From Mustelus asterias (Eukaryota): a stretch of DNA of 64,000 nt. Under the pieces are notes generated by a model. It saw nothing but the letters and a program-made list of their open reading frames with translations, had not been told where the DNA came from and searched no databases. Made by a program: the position numbers and the translations under genes. Below are positions 611 through 58,582 of the stretch, piece by piece; the stretch's first letter is position 1; each line of letters opens with the position of its first letter. The stretch spans positions 186,001-250,000 of the forward strand of contig NW_027590159.1 of the NCBI RefSeq assembly GCF_964213995.1, given 5' to 3'.

Positions 611-1002
611 TCATTGACATGAACTAACGGGGTCCACCAGTACAGGAGAAATGTTCACAAAACTGGGTTTACCGCTGGATTTGTCAACTGTTTTGTTGAT
701 GATCTTCAAGGGGAGTGCTTCATGTCCCACCACGCAGGAGTAAGAAGTGCCGCTGGCCCACTCCTTCGCTGCAATGGATAACAGGCTGTACATGAAGAAG
801 GAGCCATTCCCGTTCTCCGCCACCACCTCAGTGTTCCTGTAGTTCCCGGGATTCACGGGCTTGTCATTGACGGTCCACTTGACGAAGACCTCTCGGGGGG
901 AGAAACCTCTCACTAAGCAGCTGAGGGAGACGAATTTCTGAGCGGATATTTGTTCTGCCGAGGGCAGGAGGACAGAGACGGACGGTTCCCGTGGATTTGG
1001 AT
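611..1002 (-). CDS. IGHM: IgM CH4 exon plus secretory tailpiece
   Basis: ttttctgcag acceptor; (D)[42 protein letters not shown]...[43 protein letters not shown]; closely resembles shark Cmu4; internal donor AGCG|GTAAAC (GT at 672-671) for splicing to TM exons. Confidence 0.97.
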
Positions 1003-1480: not shown

Positions 1481-1789
1481 CTGTTTCCTTGTGGATGGAT
1501 TTTCTTAAAGGAGTCGGCAGATCCTGATGGCTCACCACGCAGTCAAACACAGCCCCACTCAGCCAGGCTTGTGTCGAGATGTTTAAGTTGCTGACCACGC
1601 TTTCAGGATCCTCTCCAGGCTTGTCTGCAATCTCTGATTTCAAATAATTCCTGTCTCGGATCCAGGACACGTTGACTCCATAAGGATAATTGAAAATGAT
1701 GCAGGTTAAGGTCACAGTCGCCTCCAGTAAGACTTGTTCTATTGGTGGTGGTTGTATTGTAATTGTGGAATCCGGGCAGTGGGAAGGAC
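1481..1789 (-). CDS. IGHM: IgM CH3 exon
   Basis: tttcattcacag acceptor, G|gtgagc donor, 309 nt, phase 1-1; (G)[29 protein letters not shown]...VSW...[22 protein letters not shown]. Confidence 0.97.
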
Positions 1790-2680: not shown

Positions 2681-2986
2681 CCAGAGATCCGGTGATGTTC
2701 TGACTCTGAGTGAGTCCTTGATGAGTGACCTGGCAGGTATAGACCGTTTTGCTGAACCATTCCCCAGCGGAGACTGTCAGCCGACTGCTCGCCGAGAAGT
2801 TTCCGTTCACTTCACAGGCAGGAGAGGTGGCAATTCCTGAATCCATGGGCTGCCCATTCTTCAGCCACTCCACCGTCATTGACTTTGGCTGGAAATCGAT
2901 GATTGAACAGACGATGGTTGCAAATTTCCTGCTTGTGATTTCTTCACTGGAACTCACGGTGAGGATAACGGTTGGGGGGATGTCGC
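2681..2986 (-). CDS. IGHM: IgM CH2 exon
   Basis: Branch-like tctaaac plus tgtttgttgaag acceptor, G|gtaagg donor, 306 nt, phase 1-1; (C)[44 protein letters not shown]...[21 protein letters not shown] second in-frame AG lies ~27 nt further upstream. Confidence 0.95.
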
Positions 2987-3961: not shown

Positions 3962-4261
3962 ATTGCATTCCAATGCTCTTGACGGAGTCGCTGTGTCGAA
4001 CCTCACAGTCGATTTTGCTGCACTCTCCCTCTGACTGGGTGATGGTTAACTGGCTGCTCAGGGTATAGGTTCCCTTCGCGTTTCTCACTGACGGATAAGT
4101 CTTAAATCCAGTGGCGATCAGCTGCCCATTTTTCTTCCAGGTCAGTTTGGAGACATCTGGAGAGTAGTCCATCGCCAAACAGCCGTAGATGATGGAGCCA
4201 GCGGAGTTGTGTTGCTGACAGGAAGAGACGAGGCTGTAGAGAGTGGGCGGAGACGGTGTCG
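3962..4261 (-). CDS. IGHM: IgM CH1 exon
   Basis: ttctttcccag acceptor, T|gtaagt donor, 300 nt, phase 1-1; (A)[45 protein letters not shown]...[21 protein letters not shown]...DCEVRH; N-terminal Cys (probable light-chain link) present. Confidence 0.97.
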
Positions 4262-13545: not shown

Positions 13546-13606
13546 ATAAAAAATATAAAACAAAAGCTCAAGTAAAACAGTTACTAAATAATTGCATGGT
13601 TCTGAC

Positions 13607-13654
13607 CTGCAGTCACCGTCACCATGGTCCCTTGTCCCCAGTAGTCCAAGTAGT
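13607..13654 (-). CDS. IGHJ: JH segment (YLDYWGQGTMVTVTA)
   Basis: WGQG motif; phase-1 donor G|gtcaga; unrearranged, with its own RSS. Confidence 0.97.
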
Positions 13655-13693
13655 CACAGTGTCACATTCGTTTGGCTGGATCATACAATAACT
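13655..13693 (+). other. JH 23-RSS
   Basis: CACAGTG (13655-61) + 23 nt + ACAATAACT (13685-93). Confidence 0.93.
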
Positions 13694-14019
13694 GGCCCTG
13701 CAAAAAATAGACAGAAAAGCCGCCATTATTTTAAATATTCACAAACCAGAGGAAAAGCAAAGTCAATTAATATTCATGAAATTATTATTGTATTTGTGGA
13801 TACCGTTCGCTCTACATAAATAACCCTTATGTTTTGTATTTCACCGGGTATAACATGAACATGTTATTGAAAACACCAAATGATAATTGAATAGTTATCA
13901 TAAATTTTCCATTTGATTCTCGCTGTTTGTACAGAGCTGGGCATAAATAATACAGCACTGCAAATAATTTTGGATTGCAAAACAGAGCACTGACCCAGTC
14001 TGGGTCAATTAGTGCTGAG

Positions 14020-14047
14020 GGTTTTTGTATTGACAGTAACTGTTGTG
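14020..14047 (-). other. D 3' 12-RSS (variant heptamer)
   Basis: CACAACA (14047-41) + 12 nt + ACAAAAACC (14028-20). Confidence 0.85.
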
Positions 14048-14060
14048 CCACCCCAGTTAT
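14048..14060 (-). CDS. DH segment (D2-type, 12/12 RSS), ATAACTGGGGTGG
   Basis: 13-nt segment flanked by two 12-RSS; frames ITGV / stop / NWG. Confidence 0.9.
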
Positions 14061-14088
14061 CACAGTGAGACACAGCATGACAAATACT
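14061..14088 (+). other. D 5' 12-RSS
   Basis: CACAGTG (14061-67) + 12 nt + ACAAATACT (14080-88). Confidence 0.9.
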
Positions 14089-14401
14089 GAGTCTGACTGC
14101 TGACTGTAAAATACAGAGATTTAATTTCACTGCTCTCTCAAAAATCTGATTCTGCCTCTTCTATGAGCGAATGAGTGAGATATTGTAGCTTGTCCAAGTC
14201 ATTATATTTACAAGGGGTATCGGAATGCTTTTAAACCCTCTATGTAGATTTAGCATATCGTTCAACACAGATTTTACGGGAAGATTTTTATACCTTTTCA
14301 CAAACTAATATTGCTTCTGCGCATTATTTCATTGAAGCCTCGTTTACTTTGAAACTCCTGCTGTGGTGCTGATCACCAATTTGAGCGATCTCTTCCCATG
14401 A

Positions 14402-14439
14402 GGTTTTTGTATGAGGATGTCGCTGTGCTCAGCACTGTG
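14402..14439 (-). other. RSS 3' of V(D1), 22-nt spacer
   Basis: Consensus CACAGTG (14439-33) + 22 nt + consensus ACAAAAACC (14410-02). Confidence 0.95.
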
Positions 14440-14752
14440 ACACACTGCTGTCTTGCACAGTAATAGATGGCGGTGTCTTCGGTCTTCAGCCTTGTCATCT
14501 CCAAAGAGAAGATGTTGGTTGAAGTGTCTTTAGACGCAGTAAATCGATCCTTAATTGCTGGGGCGTAGCTGTTGCTGGATGAAGTACCGTAGTAAACCAG
14601 CCACTCCAGCCCCTGTCCTGGAACCTGCCGGATCCAGTGCATGTTAGCGCTGCTAAAACTGAAGCCGCTGGTTTTACAGGTCAGTGTCAGGGAGCCTCCG
14701 GGACGCCCGGTCTCTGCCTCTGGCTGAGTCAACACAACCTGCGACTGAACAC
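14440..14752 (-). CDS. IGHV: VH exon, open, with 11-nt D1-like extension
   Basis: tttttcag acceptor; (G)[52 protein letters not shown]...[10 protein letters not shown] then CAGCAGTGTGT before the heptamer; both canonical Cys and the Trp intact. Confidence 0.97.
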
Positions 14753-14884
14753 CTGAAAAAATAGATTTAAAAACCCGAGGATTAATCCTGGTGTAATGAT
14801 TTTTGACTCTGGAATATTACACAGATGGACTAAAACTGAGAGTGTAACTTTGGGAGACTTAGACAATGAAAAATAACTCCTTAC

Positions 14885-14930
14885 CGGATAAGAAAGTCAG
14901 CAACAAACTGAGAGAAATCGCCGACCTCAT
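14885..14930 (-). CDS. IGHV: VH leader exon (MRSAISLSLLLTFLS)
   Basis: AGGATGA start context, hydrophobic 15 aa, 46 nt, G|gtaagg donor, 132-nt intron, in phase with the V exon. Confidence 0.93.
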
Positions 14931-21340: not shown

Positions 21341-21640
21341 CAGTCTAGGCCCTGTACCAGTAATTGTTACAAATAAACTGGGCTCTGTCTCAGTTTACAT
21401 CAGTCTAGGCCCTGTACCAGTAATTGTTACAAATAAACTGGGCTCTGTCTCAGTTTACATCAGTCTAGGTGCTGTATCAGTAATCATTACTAATACACTG
21501 GGCTCTGTCTCAGTTGACATCAGTCTAGGTGCTGTATCAGTAATCATTACTAATACACTGGACTCTGTCTCAGTTTACATCTGTCACTGTCCTGTATCTA
21601 TTAGTAATTATTACTAATGCACTTGACTCCGTCTCAGTCT
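21341..21640 (+). repeat. 60-bp minisatellite (AABB pattern) inside a degenerate ~28-30-bp satellite
   Basis: Units at 21341 and 21401 are identical; 21461 and 21521 near-identical; more diverged homolog at 39905-40190. Confidence 0.95.
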
Positions 21641-22734
21641 AAAGAAATTTAGGTCCAGTATCATTAATTACTGGGCTCTGTCTCAGTTTATATGTATAAG
21701 CTCCTATGTCCAGTAAAACTGCACTAGACACTGTCTCAGTTTTATTTTCCTCGACGTTGTCATATATATTTGTAATGTTTGTTTCATGGGATGTGGGTGT
21801 CACTGAAAAGATCAGCATTTGGCCTTTGACCATCCCCACATGGCACTCGGAAAGAAACCCATTTCTATTTTGCTGGATCAGGACCCAGTTTATGTTAAAT
21901 TAGAGTCTGTCTCTGTTAATACACTGCTAGACTAGAAATCAGTTTATATTGCACTAGCCATACTCTCTGGGTAAGTAATATTTGATCCTGACCCTGTACA
22001 TATTTCACTAGACTGTGTTAGTGTTATGCCTGCACTTAACTTTGCCTCTATTTGAATGATGTCTGCATTTCTCCGCGGTTCTACGAGAAGAAGAGATATT
22101 ATGTTGGATGAAAAACAGTGGTCTCTGGCAGGATTCTGAAACAGGCAGCATTGGATCGACAGTATTTGGTCGGTGCGGGCTTCCAGTGCCGAAGGGCCTG
22201 TTCCTCTGCAGTAACTTTTCTTGTTCTTTGTTCTGTGTTGACAGTGCATGCTATACAGGTCTCAGTAACCATTTTCAATGCAGTCAGCAGAAGTAGATTT
22301 CAGATAACACTGCTTCTTTTCCTTATTTAAGAGGATGCAGAGAATTGTGTCCCCTTAAACACTTTCCTCATTACTGGCATTGTCCAGTGCAGTAAAAACT
22401 GAGACCATGTCCAATGCAATATAAACGTGGATAGGGTCAAGTGCAGAAATAAGACTCCATCTAGTTAAATACAAGCAGACAGGTCTAAATTAATACAAAC
22501 CGATACAGCGGCTAGTTTGATATAAACTGAAACATGTTGATGCATAATATAAACAGGGACAAGGTCTAATTTAGTATAGTCAGAGAAAGCATCTCGTTTA
22601 ATATGTGTAGAGATAGCGTCTCGTGCAACATAAACCGAGGCATGACCTTATGTAATAGAAGCTGACACAGGGTAAATTTACTGTCTAATAAAGAGACTGG
22701 TTCAATCTCCATGAAATTTGGAGAGACGGCCAAC

Positions 22735-23370
22735 TGCCCCATCAAAAATTCACAGGACAGGAGTAACATGGGGTTAGCTGTAAAGTTCCCCCATGCATTG
22801 CCAAATTTAACACTCCCAAGTCAGGAATAGCATGATTTAGATACAAAGTGAACCTCCCTCTCACTATCAAAATAAAACATTCCTGGAAAAGCGAGACTGT
22901 CTAGAAACAGAGTGAAACTCCGTCAACAAAGTCTGCTCAAACACAATGAAGGCATACAGACCAGGGAATCTCTTCTCGGTAAAACCACTTCTGCATTTTT
23001 CCTTCAGAGAATCGGGAGGCAAGTTTGAATTGGTGTTCGGTAGAGGGGGAAGATCCCGCGACACAGTCCCATAAAATACACCCAGGTCAGGTACAGCAGA
23101 GATTAGATACGGATTAAATCTCCCTTTACAAGTAATATCAAACATTCAAAGGGCAGGTACGTGAGTTTAGATGTAGGTTAAATATTCCTCTCCACTGTCC
23201 AGTCAAACAGTCCAAGGGCAGGGATAAATACAGGGAAAATTTCTTTGGTACTGCCACATCGAATCCTTGTTACGAGGTACAATACAGGTTAGATACAGAG
23301 GAAAATGTATAAAATATCCCAAAATCATAGATGCTCAAGAGATCTTTTAGAGTAAATCTCCCTCATGGAT
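22735..23370 (+). repeat. Degenerate ~65-bp tandem repeat
   Basis: Unit approx. CCCATCAAACACTCCCAGG.CAGGTACAGCA.GGGTTAGATACAGAGTAAA.CTCCCTCTACACT; also at 41150-41430 and 9430-9550. Confidence 0.75.
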
Positions 23371-24194
23371 TCCAATTCATTGTGTTGCATTCCTTACAAC
23401 TCCGGCTGAGAGAATACATTGGGCAACATTGAATTCAGATTGTGGAGGGAAGACGATGAACTATCGTGAAGAGACAAGACACAGAACCAGAAGGAGAAAG
23501 ACAGAGAGAGAGAGATGAAACACAGGGAATTTCCACGAACACATTTGCCGTGTTATCACATTTCGGGATCAAAGGGATTCTTTGCTAATTCTGAACATAG
23601 ATATTGTCATGTTTTTTTTCTTCATATAATTGATGAATAACTAATGTATAAAAACAATCATTTCTGGAATCCGTTGATCGATTTGCATGTTTGTCTCTAT
23701 TTCTGTGCTGTGTTGGTGGGGAAATATTTGTTGTGTTTTCGTCAGTCAACAATCTAATCTGGGATTTCTATTTCTGTGTTTATTTACATAAGCACCTCAC
23801 TGTTTCCAATGAAATGTTAATGGCAGCAAAAACAGATAAACCGTCACTTATTCATTCGTTTCAACTCAAAATAGCGGTTATTTTAAGAATATTAACAGTT
23901 GGTTCAAAAAGAATAGAAATCTTTTTAACATACATTACACCAGATGCTATTTAATTAAATGAATAAATACATTCTATTTAAGAATTTGTTCTGAAAGTTC
24001 TGATGTCACAATAAATAAAGTATCTGTGAACAGGCTGGTATTCCATTGAATGTTAATTTGATTGATGATCTAAATTGCTTCAACTCGACAAGTTAAAACA
24101 AAGAGAACTGATGTGTGAAATATTCCTGTCATAATTAGTGATCAGACTCACACGAGGGAAGAATAAAAAATCCAGTGTGGTTATTACTAAGTGA

Positions 24195-24668
24195 TACAAG
24201 TAGCATTGCTGCCTCACAGTGACAGGGAAGCGGGTTCGATTCCAACCTTGGGTGACTGTGTGTGGTTTTTCACATTCTACCATGTCCATGTGAGTTTCCT
24301 CCGGTGCTCCGGTTTCCTTCCACAGTCCAAGGATGTACGGGTTAGGTGGATTGGTACGATAAATTGCTCCTTTGTGTCCAAGGATGAGCAACGTAGAATC
24401 ACAGAATCCCTACAGTGCAGAAGGAGACCATCGCTTCATCAAGTCTGAACCAGCTGTCCAGCAGGGCATCATTCCCAGGCCCAAGGTGGATTGGCGATTC
24501 TAAATTGCCCCTTAGTGTGCAACGATGTGTAGGTTAGAGACATTAGCCTCTGAATATGTGAGGTTGTCGGGATAGGGTGAAGGCTGGGCCTGGATAGGAT
24601 GCTCTGCTGGAGAGCAGCTGCAGACTTGATGGACCGAATGGCCTGCACTGGATTCTATGATTCTATGC
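24195..24668 (+). mobile_element. HE1-like SINE subtype 1, interrupted by an inverted tail fragment (~24392-24482)
   Basis: Head 24195-24385; resumes with duplicated GGTGGATTGG..AAATTGC at 24485; ends GATTCTATGATTCTATG. Confidence 0.8.
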
Positions 24669-25411
24669 TGCTATGATCAGCAGAGGAATGAATATATTCG
24701 CATTAGTCTCTCAGCACTTCCAACGTATTACAACTTTCATTTTGGTAGAGCTTACATTTATAGAACCCTTTACCCGACCTCATGTAGTCCCAAAGTTCTT
24801 AAAACTCACTGATGTACCTTTGCTGAATTTAGTCACTGCTATCATGTTGCAAATACAACAGGTAATGTACGTACAACAAACTCCCACAAACCGAGATGTG
24901 ATAAATTCCAGTAAATTTGTGATTTTGTTTGAAGAATCAGTATTAAGGTAGGATATTGGGGAGGACAGCCTTGCTCTTTAGAATTATATCAATGAGATTT
25001 TGCATCCTGGCATCGATTTTAAATGTGAATCTGGTTCTCTATCTGCTGATGCACACTGACCTGCTGAGTAGCATTTGTGTTACTTTAGTTTTAGATTTCC
25101 AGAATCGGCAGCACTTTACACTGTTGTTATTGATCCTCTGGATGTGAGCATCACTGACAAAGCCAACATTTAGTTGTCTCTGCTGAGAAGGCAGTTGTGA
25201 ACCAGCTTGTTGAAACCTGCCCTCTGGATGATTTTATTATTTGTTTTTCCAAAGCAGCTTTGATACAACTGGATGGCCTGCCCGGCAATTTCAGTAGTGG
25301 CTAAGAGTCATTTTCATCATAGTTGAATTGGAGTCTATGCAGAACAGACAGGGTAAAGATAGGAATCTTCGGTTTTCAGTTATTTCCAAAGAGACGATTT
25401 CGTTTGAAGTA

Positions 25412-25640
25412 TAAAAGCAAATTACTGCGGATTCTGGAATTGAAACCAAAAGAGAAAATGTTGGAAAATCTCAGCAGGCCTGGCAATATCTGTGAGGAGA
25501 GAAAATAGCTGACATATCGAATCCAGATGACCTTTTGACAAAGTTTTGACAAAGGGTCATCTTTAATCGAAAAGTAAGCTCTTCTCTCTCCTTACAGGTG
25601 CTGCCGGACTTGCTGAGATTTTCCAGCATTTTCTCTTTAC
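25412..25640. mobile_element. ~230-bp palindromic Penelope-like element (family B) at the pseudo-VH breakpoint
   Basis: AGAGAAAATGTTGGAAAATCTCAGCAG... pairs with ...CTTGCTGAGATTTTCCAGCATTTTCTCT; centre GATGACCTTTTGACAAAG|TTTTGACAAAGGGTCATC. Confidence 0.75.
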
Positions 25641-25642
25641 TT

Positions 25643-25884
25643 TGTTTGAAGTGTCTTCGGGTGGAGTAAATTGATTCTGAATCCTGGGGCGGAGGAATTG
25701 CAGGCTGACCCAAGACTATCGTACTGAAGAAGACACTGTAAACACTGTTCAGGGACCTGTCGGACCCAGACCATTCAGTTACTGCCAACATTGAACGCGT
25801 TGGCTTTGCAGGTCAGTCTCAAAGAGTTTCAGGGACGCCCAGTTTCTGCCTCTCGCTGACTCAACACAACCTCCGATTCGACAC
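25643..25884 (-). pseudogene. IGHV: VH pseudogene (leaderless, 3'-truncated, no RSS/D/J/C)
   Basis: [50 protein letters not shown]...; acceptor AG mutated to AA, two TGA stops, 1-nt deletion after GCCCCAGG, ends at GAAGACACTTCAAAC in FR3. Confidence 0.93.
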
Positions 25885-25917
25885 TTGTAAAAATATCTAA
25901 AATCCTATGAAAATAAA

Positions 25918-26226
25918 ACGCCACGCACTCCGGACATACTCGCTCACCTTTTTCCATCGGGAACAAGATACAAAAGTCTGAGGACGCGTATAAACCGACT
26001 CAAAAAGAATTTCTCTCCTGCTGCAATCGGACGTTTGAATGGACCTACGTCGCATTAAGTTCATCTTTCTCTACACCCCAGCTATGACTGCAAAATTACA
26101 TTATTCACTCTCTCCCTTCCTTCCCTATATACGTTATGCTCTGACTGTATCGTGAGCAAGAAACAATAATTTGCACTGTGCACTAATATGTGCGATAATA
26201 ATAAGTCAAATGAAATCAAATGAAAT
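25918..26226 (+). mobile_element. Rex1/Babar-type LINE 3' end at the site of the missing leader/promoter
   Basis: Relic of HSGHT..HL.PSGTRYKSLRTRINRLKKNFSPAAIGRLN, followed by an (AAATC/G)n tail. Confidence 0.75.
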
Positions 26227-26634
26227 ATATCAAAAGCACCAAGGATTATTCCTGGTGAATTGATTGCTGGCAATGGAACATTCCAGAGACAGACTAACAC
26301 CGAGGGAGGAACAGTGAAATCCATTGTCATGTCTCTGCTCGTCCAAGAGTGAAATTGCATTCGAGCATCTGTTAGAAAAAATAAACAATTTCATTGTAAA
26401 TTAAGTGCCTTTATTTCATCACCCCTTCACAAGGGAATGGACAGACACAGATGACATTACCTTATCAGGGTAAAGATGTCAGTCTGATTTGCAATAATTC
26501 TGTGTCTCTAACACTTTACAGCGAAATATAATTCATTCGAAGAATTATTATCGATTTATGTAACTTAATGCTGGGATGATTGTGTTTCAGGTGTGGATAG
26601 CTATCATTGTAATTTGGGACTGGATATAAGAAGT

Positions 26635-26968
26635 AGGGAAGCAGTGGCCTCGCGTTATTATCGCTAGACAATTAATCCACAAACTCAACTAATGTTCTCA
26701 GGACCCGGCTTCGAATCTCGCCATGGCAGATGGTGGAATTTAAATTCATTAAAAACGTCTGGAATTAAGAATCTACTTATGACCATGACATAATTGTCGA
26801 TTGTGTAAAAACCTATCGGGTTCATTAATGTCCTTTCAAGCAGGAAATATGCCGTCCTTACCTCGTCTGGCTGACATGTGATTGCAGAGCCACAGCAATG
26901 TGTTTAGCTCTCAACTGCCCTCGACAATGAGTGGGCAATAAATATTGATCAGCCAGCGGCACCCATAT
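26635..26968 (+). mobile_element. Second SINE family copy
   Basis: GGGAAGCAGTGGC...GCTTCGAATCTCGCCATGGCAGATGGTGGAATTT...; copy-2 specific. Confidence 0.75.
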
Positions 26969-27246
26969 CCATAGAATCCCTGCAGTGCATTAGGAGCATA
27001 TCGAGCCCACACCGACAACGCTCCCACCCAGGCCCTATTCCCATCCCTGCTAATTCACTTGATTCTATGGGACAATTCATCATCGCCAAACAACCTAATT
27101 GGCATATCTTTGGACAATGGGAGTAAACAGGCAGACAATTGGAGAATGTGCAGACTACACACAGACAGTGACCCATTCCGGGAATTGAACCACGGTCCCT
27201 GATGCTGTGAAGCAGCAATGGTAACCACTATGCCACCGTGCCGCCC
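26968..27246 (-). mobile_element. HE1-like SINE subtype 1
   Basis: Reverse complement begins GGGCGGCACGGTGGCATAGTGGTTA. Confidence 0.85.
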
Positions 27247-29082
27247 ACGAATAAATTAACAAAATAAACTCCTTATCTGATACAATGTTACACCTTATAT
27301 TTCCCCAACAGCTCCTTAACCCTGTGAAAATTAACGGTGAAAGGAAACTTCTTGACTTACAATTAAGCATTGAGTTGACAGAGAAACAGAAATTGACATT
27401 GACTTTTGACAAAGAAGCTAATGAATTAGAACGGACACGGCAATCAGGAAAGTTCTCCTTCAGCATCCAAATCATGACAGTTCATTTTATTGGCGAGCAG
27501 CTGGTATTGGGAACACAGGACATCAGGACTTTGCGGCATAATGCACAATATCACAAGAATAAATATTTTATCTTTCACTGAACCAGGTTATGAACTGGTC
27601 ATTTCGTCACTCATTGGCAGTTATGAGAGGGACTGTTAAATAATCGAAACCAGATTATGCTGGACAACAGAACACGTTGTACATCAGGTATAAGTTTTTA
27701 ATGAGGAGCAGAACATTGAGAATTTTCCAGAAATCCCCGCTGTTCAAGGTAGATATATGATTTTCTTTTACTTTTAATTATTTTCATTTTTGTGCCTTTA
27801 CACTGACCTCATTGGACTGAGGGATTGGGGACATCAACATATTTTTCCTGCACTTCATGAAGTTGTTCATAAAGAGGCTTTAATTGTTGGAAGGACATTT
27901 CTTTGGAAGCTATACAAATGAAATAGCATCAAGTCAATTGGCTAGTTTCCGATACTTTTTAATCACAGAATGAAAAGTGCATTCATTTAAAATATTTGCT
28001 TAGAAGAAAAACCATTTAAAATGTGCCTTCCTTTTGGGAATAAAACATTTATTGTGTAACTGACGAAGTCCCATGTTATCCTTACAGATTCACGTTAATC
28101 TGTCCTACGCAGTATTTGGCAACTGTCCAGGCTGCTGCCAAATACCCAAAAATATTGACAGGAAGCATCTGAGGGTGTTTGTTCAGTAAATCAAAAACCT
28201 GTTTCCTCAGTACTGAACACTTGGCTGCAAGCCAACCTCAAACTCTCAGCATTGTCAATGGGGCCTATTTATAAACAAATCTACCCAGCAACAGTACTGG
28301 AGGCAATTTAATTATTTTTAAGTTGCAAACATCTATGAATGTTTCCCATTTCTTCGGAAAAGAAAGTATTCAGCTTCTCCGGCACCTTGTTAGCAACAAT
28401 GATGATCTCTCCAACACAACAAAACATTGATGGATGGATATAAAAACAAATACCGGCAGATTATGAGATTGATTCAGAGAGGTGATATATTTTATACTAG
28501 ATAAACATGTATGCTTGTGTTTTCTTTCACTTTATTCTTCCATGGGACGTGAGAATCTCTGGAAAGGCCAACATTTATTCCCTTTCCCTAATTTCTCTTG
28601 AACTGAGTGGTATGCTAGGGCATCTCAGAAGGCATTGCCCAGTTAGTTATATTGCTGTCCGTCTGCAGTCACATCCTGATGAGACCAGGTAGGGATGGCA
28701 GATTTCCTTCACTGGGGAATCAGAGAGGTTTATCTGGTCGCTGTCAGTATGTATTCCAGATTTATTGATTGAATTCAAATTCCACCAGCTGCCAGGGTCG
28801 GATTTAATCTCGTGTCTCCACATCATTGGCCTGGGCTTCTGGATTACTGGTACACTGGCATTAAGATTACGCCACCATCTACCCAACAATAAAGGAATAC
28901 TTGCGTTGATGCAGGGATGAACGATAGTTGGATGCCTGAATGTTTTGATTGAGGAATCAGTGAGTGGATGGATGGATCTGACGATAGCTTGTCCTAAAAT
29001 TTGCTGTTCTACATGCACAAATTTGTGATTTACTACTTCAAAAATCGAAGCAGGTCCTTTATTCCAAGTGTGTCAGTATATA

Positions 29083-31070
29083 AGACCATAAGTCCATAAA
29101 ACATAAGACATAGGAGCAAAATGAGGCCACTCGGTCCATCGAGTCTGCTCCGCCATTCAATCATGGCTGACATTTTTCTCATCCACATTCTCTTGCCTTT
29201 TCCCCATAAGCACTGATCCTCTTATTAATCACAAACCCATCTATCTTTGTCTTAAAAACATCCAATGACCTCGCCTCCACAGCCTTCTGCGGCAAGAGAT
29301 CCACAAATTTACCACACTCTGGCTGAAGAAATTCCTCCTCATCTCTGTTTTCAAGGATCGTCCCTTTAGTCTGAGGTTATGCCCTCTGGTTCTAGTTTTT
29401 CCTACGAGTGGAAACATCCTCTCCACGCCCACTCTATCCAGGCGTCGCAGTAGCCTGAAAGTTTCAATAAGATCTCCCCTCATCCTTCAAAACTCCAACG
29501 AGTACAGATCCAGAGGACTCAACCGTTCCTCATACAGCAAGCGCTTCATTCCAGGAATCATTCTTGTGAAACTCCACTGGACCCTTTCCATGGCCAGCAC
29601 ATCCTTCCTTAGATATGGGGCCCAAGACTCACAATACTCCAATTGGGTCTGACCAGAGCCTTGTACAGCCTCAGAAGTACATCCCTGCTCTTGTATTCTA
29701 GCCCTCTCGACATGAATGCAAACATTGCATTTGCCTTCCTGAACCTGCACTTTAACCTTAAGAGAATCTTGAACAATGACTCCCAAGTCCCTTCGTATTT
29801 TTGATTTCCTCAGCATTTTCCCATTTAGAAAATAGTCTATGCCTCCATTCCTCCTTCCAAGCGCGTAACCTCACACTTTCCCAAATTGTATTCCAGCTGC
29901 CACATCTTTGCCGACTCTGCTAACCTGTCCAAGTCCTTCTGCAGCCCCCCTGCTTACTCAATATTACCTGTCCCTCTACATATCTTTGTATCATCTGCAA
30001 ACTTAGCAACAGTACCTTCAGTTCTTTCCTCCAAATCGCTAATGCATATTGTGAAAAGTTGTGGTCCCAGCACTGACCCCTGAGGCACACCACTAGTCAC
30101 CGGCTGCCATCCTGAGAAAGACCCCTTTTTTCCCACTCTCTGCCTTCTGCCAATCAACCAATCCTCTATCCATGCCAGGATCTTACCCTTAACACCATGG
30201 GCATTTAACTTATTTAACAGTCTCCTTTTCGGCACCTTGTCAAAGGCCTTCTGGAAATCTAAATAAATCATGTCCACTGGCTCTCATTTATCTAACTTCC
30301 TTGTTACCTCCTCCAAGAACTCTAACAGATTTGTCAGATATTACCTCCCCTTCACAAAACTGTGCTGACTCATTCCTACTTTATCATGCCCTTCCATGTA
30401 CTCTGCGGTCTCATCTTTGATAATGGAATTTAATGTCTTGCCAATGAACGAAGCCAGGCTAACCGGCCTATAATTTCTCGTCTGCTGCCTCCCTCCCATC
30501 TTAAACAATGGTGTTGCATTCGCTACTTTGCAGTCCTCTGGTACATTCCCTGCCTCCAGTGATTTCTGAAAGACCACCACCAATGCCTCCACAATTTCCT
30601 CAGTTATCTCTTTTAGAACCCTGCGGTGTAGTCCTTCCGGTCCAGGTGATTTATCCACCTTCAGACCTTTCAATTTCCCCAGAACCTTCTCCTTAGTGAT
30701 GGCCACTACAGTCACCTGTGCCCCTGGACTCTCCTGGAGCTCTGGCATTCCACTGGTGTCTTCCACCGTGAAGACTGATGCAAAGTAACTCTTCAGTTCC
30801 TCTGCCATTGCTTTGTTTCCTGTTATTACTTCTCCAGTCTAATTTTCCAGTGGTCCAATGGCAATTTTTGCATCTTTCTTACCTTTTTTTATATTGAAAA
30901 AAACTCTCCCTGTCTTATTTCATATTACTACCTAGCTTACACTCATATTTCATCTTCTCCCCCTTATTGCTTTTTTAGTGTCCTCTGCTTGCTTTGAAAT
31001 GCGTCCCAATCCTCTGGCTTCCCACTAATCTTTGCCGCTTTGTATGCTTTAACTTTTGCTTTAATGCTGT
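29083..31070 (-). mobile_element. CR1 LINE, ~2 kb, frameshifted ORF2 (RT)
   Basis: ORF pieces [43 protein letters not shown]; short tandem tail at 29083-29112. Confidence 0.95.
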
Positions 31071-38042: not shown

Positions 38043-39215
38043 AGAACATAGAAGATAGAAAAACAACAGCACAGACAGGCCCTTCGGCCCACAAGTTGTG
38101 CCGAACACGTCCCTACCTTCTAGACCTACCTATGACCCTCCATCCTATTAAGCTCCATGTACTCATCCAGGAGTCTCTTAAAAGACCCTATTGAGTTCGC
38201 CTCCACCACCACTGACGGCAGCCGTTTTCACTCGCCCACCACCCTCTGTGTGAAAAACTTACCCCTAACATCTCCCCTGTACCTATCCCCCAGCACCTTA
38301 AACCTGTGTCCTCTCGTAGCAGACATTTCCACCCTGGGAAAAAGCCTCTGAGAGTCCACCCGATCTATGCCTCTCAACATCTTATACACCTCTATTCGGT
38401 CTGCTCTCATCCTTCGTCTCTCCAAGGAGAAAAGACCGAGCTCCCTCAGCCTATCCTCATAAGGCATGCCACTCAATCCAGGCAACATCCTTGTAAATCT
38501 CCTCTGCACCCTTTCAATCTTTTCCACATCCTTCCTATAGTGAGGCGACCAGAACTGAGCACAGTATTCCAAGTGGGGTCTGATGAGGGTCTTATATAGC
38601 TGCATCATTATCCCCGGACTCCTAAACTCAATTCCTTGATTGATAAAGGCCAGCACACCATACGCCTTCTTAACCACCTCCTCCACCAGCGGGGCCGATT
38701 TTAGAGTCCTATGGACCCGGACCCCAAGGTCCTTCTGATCCTCTGCCGTACTAAGAGTCTTTCCCTTTATATTGTACTCCTTCATCCCATTTGACCTATC
38801 AAAATGGACCACGACGCATTTATCTGGGTTGAAGTCCATCTGCCACTTGTCCGCCCAGTCTTGCATCCTATCTATGTCCCTCTGTAACTTCTGGCATCCC
38901 TCCAGACTATCCACATCCCCACCAACCTTTGCGTCGTCGGCAAACTTACCAACCCATCCCTCCGCTTCCTCATCTGTGTCATTTCTGAAAATTACAAACA
39001 GCAAGGGTCCCAGAACAGATCCCTGGGGCACACCACTGGTGACCAACCTCCAATTAGAAAAAGACCCATCTATGCACACTATCTGCCTCCTTTGGGCAAG
39101 CCAGTTCTGGATCCACCGGGCAGCAGCCCCTTGGATCCCATGCCATCTCCCTTTTTCTAGAAGCCTTGCATGGGGGACCTTATCGAATGCCTTGCTAAAA
39201 TCCATATAAACCATA
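38043..39215 (-). mobile_element. CR1 LINE, 5'-truncated, 331-aa open RT frame
   Basis: [52 protein letters not shown]. Confidence 0.95.
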
Positions 39216-39344
39216 TAATCCATATGTCCTGTCTCTGTTAGTTCTCTACTCGGCTCATTATCAGTTGTTCATAAGTGAAGCCAAGGCCTGTTTTAACGAT
39301 GGTTTCTGAATTATGACTGTGCTGAAATATGTTTCAGTTAATCT

Positions 39345-54045: not shown

Positions 54046-54103
54046 ATTTGTATAGCGTAGTACTAACCAGCGTGATGTTTTCTCACATAGACAGAAACAT
54101 GAA

Positions 54104-56356
54104 TTGTGTAACGAGGTAGGTAGAATTAAGGATCTTATTGTGAAGGACCCTCTTGGGTCTAGTGACCACAATATGGTCGAATTTCTGATTCAGATGGAAG
54201 AGGAGAAAGTTTGGTCTCAAACCAGTGTCCTCTGTTTGAACAGAGGGAAATATGATAGGATGAGGGATGAATTGGCTAAGGTAGACTGGGAGAGCAGGCT
54301 GGCAGGTAGGATAGCTGAGGAACAGTGGAGGATTTTTAAGGAGATCCTTTTCAGTTCTCAGCAAAAATATATTCCAGCAAAAAACAAGGATTGTAAGAAA
54401 AGGGAGAACCAGCCGTGGATAACGAAGGAAATAAAGGAGAGTATTAAAATAAAAACAGCTGCGTACAGAGTGGCCAAAAATAGTGGAGAAACAAGTGATT
54501 GGGAAAAATTTAAGAAACAACAAAGAGAGACTAAGAAAGCGATAAAGAAAGGAAGGATAGACTATGAAGCTAGGCTAGCAATTAATATAAAAAATGATAG
54601 TAAAAGTTTTTATAAATATATAAAAAGGAATAGAGTGGCTAGAGTGAATGTTGGACCCTTGGAGGACGAGAGGGGGGAGTTAATAGTGGGAAATGAGGAT
54701 ATGGCTGAGTCTTTAAATAAGTTTTTTGTGTCGGTCTTCACGGTGGAGGACACAAATAGTTTGCCAAATATTAACGATAGAGGGTTGGCAGCAGGAGAAA
54801 TACTTAATACAATTAATGTTACCAGAGAGGCAGTGCTGGGTAGACTAATGGGACTGAAGGTGGACAAGTCCCCGGGTCCGGATGGAATGCATCCCAGGGT
54901 ATTGAAAGAAATGTCAGAGGTAATAGTGGATGCGTTAGTGATTATTTATCAAAACTCGTTGCATTCTGGGGTAGTGCCGGTTGATTGGAAAACGGCTAAT
55001 GTTACGCCGCTGTTTAAAAAAGGAAGGAGACAAAAGGCGGGTAACTATAGGCCGGTCAGCTTAACGTCTGTAGTAGGGAAAATGCTGGAATCCATTATTA
55101 AAGAGGAGATAGCAGGGCATCTGGATAGAAATGGTTCGATCAATCAGACGCAGCATGGATTCATGAGGGGAAAGTCGTGCTTGACGAACATGTTGGATTT
55201 TTATGAAGATGTGACGAGGGCGGTTGATGGAGGAGAACCGGTGGATGCGGTGTTTTTGGATTTCCAAAAGGCGTTTGATAAGGTGCCCCATAAAAGGCTG
55301 CTGAAGAAGATTAGGGCACACGGAGTTGGGGGCAGTGTGTTAAAGTGGATTGGGGACTGGCTATCCGACAGGAAGCAAAGAGTCGGAATAAATGGGTGTT
55401 TTTCCGGTTGGAGGAAGGTAACTAGTGGCGTGCCGCAGGGATCGGTACTCGGGCCGCAACTGTTTACCATTTATATAGATGATCTGGAGGAGGGTACGGA
55501 GTGTAGGGTAACGAAGTTTGCAGACGACACAAAGATAAGTGGAAAAGTGAATCGTGTGGAGGACGGAGAAGATCTGCAGAGAGATTTGGACAGGCTGAGT
55601 GAGTGGGCGAGGATATGGCAAATGGAGTATAACGTTGAGAAATGCGAGGTTATACACTTTGGAGGAAATAATAACAAATGGGATTACTATCTCAATGGAA
55701 ACAAACTAAAACATGCTACCGTGCAAAGGGACCTGGGGGTCCTTGTGCATGAGACGCAAAAGCCCAGTCTGCAGGTACAACAGGTGACCAAGAAGGGAAA
55801 TGGGATGTTGGCCTATATTGCGAAGGGCATAGAATATAAAAGCAGGGATGTCTTGATGCACCTGTACAGGGCATTGGTGAGGCCGCAGCTGGAATACTGT
55901 GTGCAGTATTGGTCCCCTTATATGAGGAAGGATATATTGGCATTGGAGGGAGTGCAGAGAAAGTTCACCAGGTTGATACCGGAGATGAGGGGTTTGGATT
56001 ATGAGGAGAGGCTGAGGAGATTGGGTTTGTACTCGTTGGAGTTTAGAAGGATGAGGGGGGAACTTATGGAGACTGAGAAGATAATGCGGGGGCTGGATAG
56101 GGTGGAGGCGGAGAGATTCTTTCCACTTAGTAAGGAAGTTAAAACTAGAGGACACAGCCTCAAAATAAAGGGGGGTCGGTTTAAGACAGAGTTGAGGAGG
56201 AACTTCTTCTCCCAGAGGGTCGTGAATCTCTGGAATTCTCTGCCCACTGAGGTGGTGGAGGCTACCTCGCTGAATATGTTTAAAGCGCGGATGGATGGAT
56301 TCCTGATCGGTAAGGGAATTAAGGGTTATGGGGATCAGGCGGGTAAGTGGTACTGA
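54104..56356 (+). CDS. CR1 ORF2, 5'-truncated (end of APE endonuclease, intact RT, C-terminus), 750 aa
   Basis: [64 protein letters not shown]; no stops; no true start codon. Confidence 0.95.
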   Translation: MCNEVGRIKDLIVKDPLGSSDHNMVEFLIQMEEEKVWSQTSVLCLNRGKYDRMRDELAKVDWESRLAGRIAEEQWRIFKEILFSSQQKYIPAKNKDCKKRENQPWITKEIKESIKIKTAAYRVAKNSGETSDWEKFKKQQRETKKAIKKGRIDYEARLAINIKNDSKSFYKYIKRNRVARVNVGPLEDERGELIVGNEDMAESLNKFFVSVFTVEDTNSLPNINDRGLAAGEILNTINVTREAVLGRLMGLKVDKSPGPDGMHPRVLKEMSEVIVDALVIIYQNSLHSGVVPVDWKTANVTPLFKKGRRQKAGNYRPVSLTSVVGKMLESIIKEEIAGHLDRNGSINQTQHGFMRGKSCLTNMLDFYEDVTRAVDGGEPVDAVFLDFQKAFDKVPHKRLLKKIRAHGVGGSVLKWIGDWLSDRKQRVGINGCFSGWRKVTSGVPQGSVLGPQLFTIYIDDLEEGTECRVTKFADDTKISGKVNRVEDGEDLQRDLDRLSEWARIWQMEYNVEKCEVIHFGGNNNKWDYYLNGNKLKHATVQRDLGVLVHETQKPSLQVQQVTKKGNGMLAYIAKGIEYKSRDVLMHLYRALVRPQLEYCVQYWSPYMRKDILALEGVQRKFTRLIPEMRGLDYEERLRRLGLYSLEFRRMRGELMETEKIMRGLDRVEAERFFPLSKEVKTRGHSLKIKGGRFKTELRRNFFSQRVVNLWNSLPTEVVEATSLNMFKARMDGFLIGKGIKGYGDQAGKWY

Positions 56357-56499: not shown

Positions 56500-58582
56500 A
56501 ATGTAGAAAATTACAGCTCAGAAACAGGCCTTTTGGCCCTTCTTGTCTTTGCCGAACCATTTTTTGCCTAGTCCCACTGACCTGCACTTGGACCATATCC
56601 CTCCACACCCCTCTCATCCATGAACCCGTCCAAGTTTTTCTTAAATGTTGAAGTGGCATTTACCACTTTATCCGGCAGCTCATTCCACACTCCCACCACT
56701 CTCTGCGTGAAGAAGTTCTCCCCTAATATTCCCTTTAAACATTTCTCCTTGCACCCTTAACCCATGTCCTCTGGTTTTCTTCTCCCCGAGCCTCAGCGGA
56801 AAAAGCCTGCTTGCATTCACTCTATCTATACCCATCAAAATCTTATGCACCTCTATCAAATCTCCCCTCAATCTTCTATGCTCCAGGGAATAAAGTCCCA
56901 ACCTATTCAATCGCTCTGTGCAACTCAGCTTCTCAAGACCCGGCAATATCCTTGTGAACCTTCTCTGCACTCTTTCAACCTTATTTACATCCTTCCTGTA
57001 ACTAGGTGACCAAAACTGTACACAATACTCCAAATTCGGCCTCACCAATGCCTTATATAACCTTACCATAACACTCCAACTTTTATACTCGTTACTCAGA
57101 TTTATCAAAGCCAATGTACCAATGTACTCTTTATACCTGTGACGTCACTTTTAGGGAATTCTGTACCTGTATTCCCAGATCCCTCTGTTCAATTGCACTC
57201 TTCAGAGTCCTACCATTTACCCTATACGTTCTACTTTAGTTTGTGCTTCCAATGTGCAATATCTCACACTTGTCTGCGTTAAATTATCCTATAAGAAGGA
57301 TGTGGAAGCGCTGGAAAGAGTGCAGAGGAGATTTACCAGGATGCTGCCTGGATTGGAGGGTAGGTCTTATGAGGAAAGGTTGAGGGAGCTTGGGCTGTTC
57401 TCTCTGGAGCGGAGGAGGCTGAGGGGAGACTTAATAGAGGTTTATAAAATGATGAAGGGGATAGATAGAGTGGACGTTCAAAGACTATTTCCTCGGGTGG
57501 ATGGAGCTATTACAAGGGGGCATAACTATAGGGTTCGTGGTGGGAGATACAGGAAGGATATCAGAGGTAGGTTCTTTACGCAGAGAGTGGTTGGGGTGTG
57601 GAATGGACTGCCTGCAGTGATAGTGGAGTCAGACACTTTCAGAACATTTAAGCGGTTATTGGATAGGCACATGGAGCACACCAGGATGATAGGGAGTGGG
57701 ATAGCTTGATCTTGGTTTCAGATAAAGCTCGGCACAACATCGTGGGCCGAAGGGCCTGTTCTGTGCTGTACTGTTCTATGTTCTATGTAAATTCCATTTG
57801 CCATTTTTCAGCCCATTTTTCGAGTTGGTCCAAATCCCTCTGCAAGCTTTGAAAACCTTCCTCACTGTCCACTCCACCTCCAATCTTTGTATCATCAGTA
57901 AACATGCTGATCCAATTTACCACATTATCATCCAGATCATTGATATAGATGACAACCAACAATGGACCCAACAGCGATCCCTGCGGCACACCACTAGTCA
58001 CAGGCCTCCACTCAGAGAAGCAATCCTCCACAACCACCCTCTGGCTTCTTCCATTGAACCAGTGTCTAATCCAATTTACTACCTCCCCATGTATACCTAG
58101 CGACTGAACCTTCCTAACTAACCTCCCATGAGGGACCTTGTCAAAGGTCTTGCTGAAATCCAGGTAGACAACATCCACCGCCTTCCCTTCATCCACTTTC
58201 CTGGTAACCTCCTCGAAAAACTCTAATAGATTGGTCAAACATGACCTACCACGCACAAAGCCATGTTGACTCTCCCTAATAAGTCCCTGTCTATCCAAAT
58301 ATTTGTAGATCCTATCCCTTATGACACCTTCCAATAACTTGCCCACCACCGACGTCAAACTTACTGGCCTATAATTTCCCGGATTTATTTTGGAACCTTT
58401 TTTTAAACAACGGAACAACATGAGCCACCCTCCAATCATCCGGCACCTCCCCCGTGAATACTGACATTTTAAATATGTCTGCCAGGGCCCCTGCAAGTTC
58501 AACACTAGCTTCCCTCAAGGTCCGTGGGAATACCCTGTCTGGTCCTGGGGATTTATCCACTCTGAATTGCCTCAAGACAGCG
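56500..58582 (-). mobile_element. CR1 LINE split by a nested opposite-strand CR1
   Basis: RT motifs at 57788-58582 continue into 57285-56500 once the insert is removed (..GCGTTAAATT|CCATTTGCC..). Confidence 0.92.
57286..57787 (+). mobile_element. Nested CR1 3' end with TSD TAAATT
   Basis: TAAATT at 57280-85 and 57788-93; YKKDVEALERVQRRFTRMLPG; (GTTCTAT)n tail. Confidence 0.92.

Follow-up and report, generated by a model that had tools for sequence, protein, structure and literature searches.

The window, by which we mean the whole 64-kb stretch of DNA analysed here, holds a shark IgM heavy-chain cluster in which V runs directly into a remnant of the first diversity segment, D1. Is this fusion an inherited product of RAG recombination in germ cells, a lymphocyte rearrangement caught by the assembly or a deletion made by other means, and does it set the gene apart from its relatives? 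A sequence-only reading had proposed a germline RAG event that left an intact gene of unusual, possibly innate-like, use. We set this proposal against the other IgM clusters of the same genome, contigs from several runs and published systems.

Architecture of the window cluster

All segments lie on the (−) strand, in the order leader, V with its D1 remnant, D2, J, four C exons and secretory tail. The leader exon (46 nt from its ATG, 14885..14930, read from the sequence) is followed by a 132-nt intron that one contig of run X1, possibly derived from a paralogue, skips exactly. The VH exon (14451..14752; Pfam V-set, E 4e-16) is an open frame ending in C-A-R, delimited by junction decomposition; its CDR1 includes SSANMH and its CDR2 YYGTSS. 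Beyond it come the 11-nt D1 remnant (14440..14450, recognized by its match to free D1 copies) and the D1 3′ RSS (14402..14439), which has a 22-nt spacer and no mismatch in heptamer or nonamer in our RSS scan and is identical to that of unjoined paralogues, for example L003–L009. A 313-bp stretch (14089..14401) that aligns to the D1–D2 interval of unjoined paralogues separates this RSS from a free D2 with both of its RSSs (14020..14088; coding 14060-14048). The D2 5′ 12-RSS (14061-14088) was found by the scan; the 3′ 12-RSS (14047-14020), not in the scan output, was read directly from the sequence, and its heptamer has two mismatches, the identical variant occurring in 17 of 65 loci. After 326 bp (14019-13694) follow the J 23-RSS (13693-13655, RSS scan) and the J coding segment (13654-13607, placed by comparison with paralogues). 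J has a private Phe-to-Leu change at 13647, and its splice donor a private A-to-C change at +3 (13604), giving a donor seen in 1 of 71 loci. Other private variants of the cluster are at 14657 and 14395. These measurements agree with what had first been read from the letters: one free D with some 310–330 bp on each side, no further heptamer/nonamer pair in the upstream interval (the RSS scan shows none there), and 11 extra nucleotides after C-A-R that lead into a consensus RSS with a 22-nt spacer.

The C exons lie at 3962..4261, 2681..2986 and 1481..1789 (each an open frame with a Pfam C1-set match) and at 611..1002, where an open frame with Pfam support continues into a secretory tail with a penultimate Cys. 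Their borders, AG/GT in exon 1, were placed by eye and preserve phase, the exons being judged singly. For C exon 4 the best PDB match is an IgG hybrid chain and the next seven are mostly Ig mu. The frame of a TM exon is found past the start of the window, in the neighbouring stretch (L080:6236-6442, (−) strand). Set beside the elasmobranch IgM cluster layout (leader and V, D1 with 12/22 RSSs, D2 with 12/12 and J with 23, within ~1.6 kb), the window cluster retains everything 3′ of D1. It also has four C1-set exons, a secretory tail with penultimate Cys and a TM exon, a layout that we take to mean IgM rather than IgW. With V and C exons open, the gene looks intact, as had been claimed, and by its sequence would be a complete-looking shark IgM heavy-chain cluster within a 1.09-Mb contig.

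Two further observations concern the rest of the window. A truncated VH pseudogene fragment (25643-25882, (−) strand), with stops and without a 3′ end or RSS, lies ~11 kb upstream of the functional V, and the 3 kb around it recur in many clusters. The ORFs at 38231-39268, 54056-56353 and 57786-58514 resemble, by eye, pieces of LINE reverse transcriptase.

Anatomy of the V–D1 junction

Unjoined clusters have a V followed by a 23-RSS and, ~440 bp downstream of that V, a D1 flanked by a 12-RSS and a 22-RSS. Compared with the unjoined locus L003, the window cluster is missing 445 bp, composed of a 439-bp RSS-to-RSS signal segment and six coding nucleotides, of which ~3 nt come from the 3′ end of V and ~3 nt from the 5′ end of D1; junction decomposition finds the V 23-RSS absent. 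At 10 of its 11 positions the stub agrees with the D1 sequence that is commonest among the free copies of the genome (32 of 49); the remaining position is a private G>T that turns a Trp codon into Cys and is found in none of the 49 free copies. When aligned to unjoined paralogues, the check that the first reading had suggested, the RSS after the stub and the sequence downstream match the D1 3′ RSS and the D1–D2 interval (13 substitutions in 1220 nt against L003), not the V RSS and V–D1 interval. This upholds the identification of the stub as D1; an account in which D1 was deleted and the stub is a duplicated heptamer is ruled out by the same alignment. A pattern search for V–D1 junctions returned six matches against none for the reversed-pattern control, so the pattern does not arise by chance.

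A 23-RSS, a 12-RSS and the intervening DNA are gone together with few coding nucleotides, and by its sequence the window junction is built like a RAG coding joint that obeys the 12/23 rule. It contains no N bases and no P nucleotides, both ends being trimmed, and shows microhomology of 1 nt (3 nt for a parent with the other common V end). Such microhomology, without a P base, would also suit removal of the V–D1 interval independently of RAG, by microhomology repair or replication slippage, as would a hexamer resembling a heptamer that lies within the 3′ end of V and repeats the D1 5′ heptamer. However, both breakpoints fall at most 3 nt from an RSS heptamer, and the longest exact repeat near both deletion ends, 6 bp, is not used by the junction: its use would delete the A-R codons, yet these are retained. 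The seven V–D1 junctions of the family, and all 20 junction strings overall, likewise lie at coding ends, some with P-type bases. A RAG-independent deletion is thus largely refuted, and we consider it highly improbable. As for the claim that RAG fused V to D1 in frame, D1 is indeed locked in one frame (C-A-R-Q-Q-C), but the frame of J is set by later joins.

Joined loci across the genome

Searching the animal's own genome with 13550-14760 gave 75 matches. Thirty loci were examined, 25 of them unjoined V-D1-D2-J and five, the window included, without the V–D1 interval. Pattern searches and extracted stretches yielded 93 loci, from which 22 were left out (10 duplicates, 2 flank stretches, 5 without a V end and 5 unclassifiable); the 71 classified are assembly loci, their number is a minimum, and some genes are probably represented by both haplotypes. 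Full, unjoined V-D1-D2-J order is kept by 46 of them, and 25 are joined in six configurations: nine VD-D-J, seven VDD-J, three V-DD-J, three V-D-DJ, two V-DDJ and one VDDJ. V-side joins are the most frequent class, with VD-D-J and VDD-J making up 16 of the 25.

Because the nine VD-D-J loci show seven different V–D1 junctions on separate branches, V–D1 joining must have been recurrent. The seven vary in length and frame, have no common motif and are scattered across unrelated subfamilies. A single ancestral V–D1 join, later duplicated, is rejected for the family by the seven junction types and their separate branches. Nor do the counts support a singular or specialized gene in the window, which is one of nine VD-D-J loci among 25 joined out of 71.

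The 25 joined loci contain 20 distinct junction strings. Seventeen need no untemplated base and three need 1–4, under a lenient rule that allows one mismatch per side (and by which the value of −3 for L041 is a double count); the window junction leaves 0 nt unexplained. P-type bases are present in sister junctions, one in L002 and, by eye, two in L041. Simulated junctions that do contain N bases were fully explained 15–66% of the time, and the probability that at least five of seven would be so ranged from 0.001 to 0.56 with the assumed N length. We therefore rejected the argument that a lack of N bases proves germline origin; the simulation shows it to be too weak alone.

Several other loci stand out. 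L041 (C166:443077-443130) is the fully joined VDDJ locus, with an untrimmed V end, its two P-type bases and an open V; it reads in frame to J by eye and is a candidate ready-made antibody gene. In L012, L042, L043 and L044, which have a D2 heptamer variant in common, J carries a 1-nt insertion just before W-G-Q-G, and their rearrangement would require deep J trimming or a compensating frame. The unjoined L071 (C166 ~171800-172700) has as its D2 a trimmed-D1 sequence, which the fused D of L052 also has; this D2 may be a germline D–D join that conversion has put to new use.

Germline or somatic origin

We judge the window V–D1 join to be an inherited germline RAG product, with a probability of roughly 0.85. 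This bears out the proposed fusion as far as the RAG-type joint anatomy goes; its germline origin is the likeliest reading and is shown indirectly.

The competing possibility is that a somatic VD-D-J intermediate from a lymphocyte, perhaps of the T lineage, was assembled instead of the germline allele. Nurse shark thymocytes have VD-D-J and other partial joins, with V–D1 the more frequent, according to the available text of PMC2435157. The window junction is bridged by no contig listed in six of 20 runs, X1, X2, X3, X5, X7 and X8 (at most 0.37 of words in each), and two VDJ joints in run X1 (2 contigs) do not use it. The assembly also has near-identical, allele-like pairs that differ in join state, and some of its joined contigs could be somatic. 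Against this, the unjoined parent of a somatic join should be present in greater number than the join itself, and comparisons of CDR2, flanks and V side found no unjoined parent copy of the window cluster in this assembly. A 35-nt CDR2 stretch matches exactly at the window locus only; the 3-kb flanks have a best other match of 97% each (40 of 2222 candidates were scored for one and 38 of 121 for the other); and the closest V side of an unjoined locus has 46 differences in 1001 nt. The change in the D1 stub, private among free D1 copies, and the position of the locus inside its 1.09-Mb contig also speak against a lymphocyte rearrangement, which we regard as very unlikely. A private 2-nt tandem change in the leader intron (14843-14842) is too little to read as somatic hypermutation.

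Recurrence of junctions elsewhere in the family bears on the same point. L039 and L040 have the same junction with flanks that differ at 39 of 3046 positions, as do L042 and L043 with flanks that differ at 16 of 3980; since the same junctions recur with different flanks, these joins are not one-cell events. L082–L084 have one common junction and identical flanks. In a run X3 contig, from a different animal, the V–D1 junction of L013 is seen by eye to be followed by a D2 join.

A search for an allele found no collinearity between the window and C306:1-140000; C306 resembles an allele of C127 near 490 kb. C242 and the 8.83-8.90 Mb stretch of C71, considered as alleles, were rejected as such and are paralogues. 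Separately, a run X1 contig over 14283-14465 is VD-D-J, with a junction 2 nt longer than that of the window and 11 other differences in 185 letters, and is a further V–D1 junction in another animal; run X1 also has spliced contigs.

Mosaic clusters and staged loci

The nearest neighbours of clusters differ between the V side and the J side, marking the IgM clusters, by their sequences, as mosaics; the window junction may therefore have arisen in, or moved between, other copies. Within the window, an 8.5-kb tract (21388-29842) is 99.7% identical to C242 inside 93–97% paralogy, which we read as recent exchange between clusters, by conversion or unequal crossover. The duplicated unit exceeds 50 kb.

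Some near-identical loci differ in how far they are joined. The VDD-J loci L039 and L040 have a V side identical (0/650) to that of the unjoined L017 and L018, and there are 13 differences in 600 positions between the J sides of L039 and L040, which suggests a very recent join followed by exchange. L089 (V-DD-J, G000:C104 ~1170400) and L037 (VDD-J, G000:C110 ~860100) have the same D–D junction and flanks that are 99.94% and 99.77% identical over ~10 kb each, consistent with a second join made atop an earlier one in an allele-like pair. The unjoined L049 (C127:490400), the V-DD-J locus L052 (C306:356757) and the VDD-J locus L038 (C667:195400) are 99.5–99.9% identical, and L052 and L038 have a D end in common; across both series this identity of the flanks extends over up to 20 kb. 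These staged loci give the appearance of joins added one after another on alleles or on very recent duplicates, and we take them as a hint that germline recombination has proceeded recently and in steps. Somatic carry-over is a possible alternative for both the L089/L037 and the L049/L052/L038 series. Tentatively, and with the odds somewhat against it, germline V(D)J recombination may still be running stepwise in this lineage, with some joins segregating as alleles and the window VD-D-J a live intermediate with a fixed C-A-R-Q-Q start. If so, one could measure the rate of germline RAG events in sperm or pedigrees.

Consequences for rearrangement

In the mechanism that we propose, RAG would have cut the V 23-RSS and the D1 12-RSS in ancestral germ cells with little TdT activity, the joined product would have been inherited, and clusters would later have exchanged sequence through conversion or unequal crossover. 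Two joins would remain for a B cell to make, as had been predicted: D1 22-RSS with D2 5′ 12-RSS, and D2 3′ 12-RSS with J 23-RSS. Under the 12/23 rule D1 could not join J directly, which would make D2 obligatory. The predicted CDR3 would have a fixed start, C-A-R-Q(-Q-C), trimmed from its 3′ side and keeping its Cys only if at most 2 nt were removed. One N site and two D1 frames would be lost, and the final frame would still be somatic. The suggestion of a shorter, semi-invariant CDR3 is thus a fair one for the 5′ end and is limited to that end. The J donor change at +3 is expected to leave splicing usable, although it may be weakened, and makes the competence of the gene doubtful on this one point; the Cys created by the D1 change is probably unpaired. 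The four private V-side changes all lie 3′ of the leader exon, and none is in the aligned promoter region.

Selection might in addition have retained a germline join as a source of innate-like or early IgM whose CDR3 is semi-fixed. All 19 joined loci examined have open V frames, the private V-side changes spare the aligned promoter region, and germline-joined genes are expressed in nurse shark pups, as reported in the available parts of PMC2193156 and PMC4279169. But the pup-expressed examples are fully joined genes (Lee 2000, PMC2193156, in its available text), and the same text reports that expression of joined horned-shark H chains was not detected. The variety of the seven V–D1 junctions in length, frame and motif and their dispersal over unrelated subfamilies also speak against it, and the window copy itself bears the private donor change and the probably unpaired Cys. 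We find selection of this kind unlikely, and the proposed innate-like or early role unsupported. Most likely, the window join is a by-product of recurrent germline RAG activity in a gene that is still rearrangeable, and not a selected innate antibody.

Comparison with known systems

Partial germline joining is a long-known trait of shark antibody genes, to which the window locus adds one example; the primary source on partly germline-joined IgM clusters is reportedly Kokubu 1988. In the literature searched, which did not include that work, the available text held VD-D-J as a somatic product and not as a germline form, and we do not claim the germline form as unpublished. Taken singly, the locus is one well-resolved case, and its value lies in the census around it, in which close unjoined paralogues make 20 junction strings readable as RSS-precise, mostly N-less joins and bring out staged, near-identical series. 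Should this be confirmed in germ-cell DNA, present-day RAG activity in shark germ cells would become directly testable.

Germline V DD-J, VDJ and V D1-D2J clusters are described in horned shark and little skate in the available part of Lewis and Wu 2000 (PMC2193153), and reviews give germline VD-J, VD-DJ and VDJ forms in the text available from them (PMC5192425, PMC4279169). The horned shark and skate clusters resemble the window cluster in having the V-D1-D2-J-C plan with one or more RSS-bounded segments gone and in being mixed with unjoined clusters, and their listed V D1-D2J form includes a V–D1 fusion; the window cluster differs in being joined at V–D1 only, with D2 and J free.

For the nurse shark, the accessible portion of Lee 2000 (PMC2193156) describes independent germline joins with trimming, P bases and little TdT activity, and calls heavy-chain junctions too varied for dissecting joining events. 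The NS4 light-chain genes treated there likewise derive from several independent joins of split genes, some of them recent, but they encode light chains and are fully joined. For NS4, the available part of PMC2193153 states that no polymorphism between joined and unjoined forms was found, whereas the present assembly has allele-like pairs in differing states.

The configuration of the window cluster is identical to that of somatic 1R VD-D-J rearrangements in nurse shark (Malecek 2008, PMC2435157), where, in the text available, V-to-D1 is the more frequent somatic join in sIgM+ and thymus clones. Those somatic clones are each unique, with N/P additions, whereas most junctions here lack N bases and some occur in duplicate. 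Nurse shark IgM1gj, as far as the available text of PMC5192425 and PMC4279169 describes it, is likewise an IgM-type heavy chain joined in the germline. Unlike the window gene, which is one-third joined, with D2 and J free, and has four C exons, IgM1gj is a full VDJ join without C exon 2 and is expressed in neonates.
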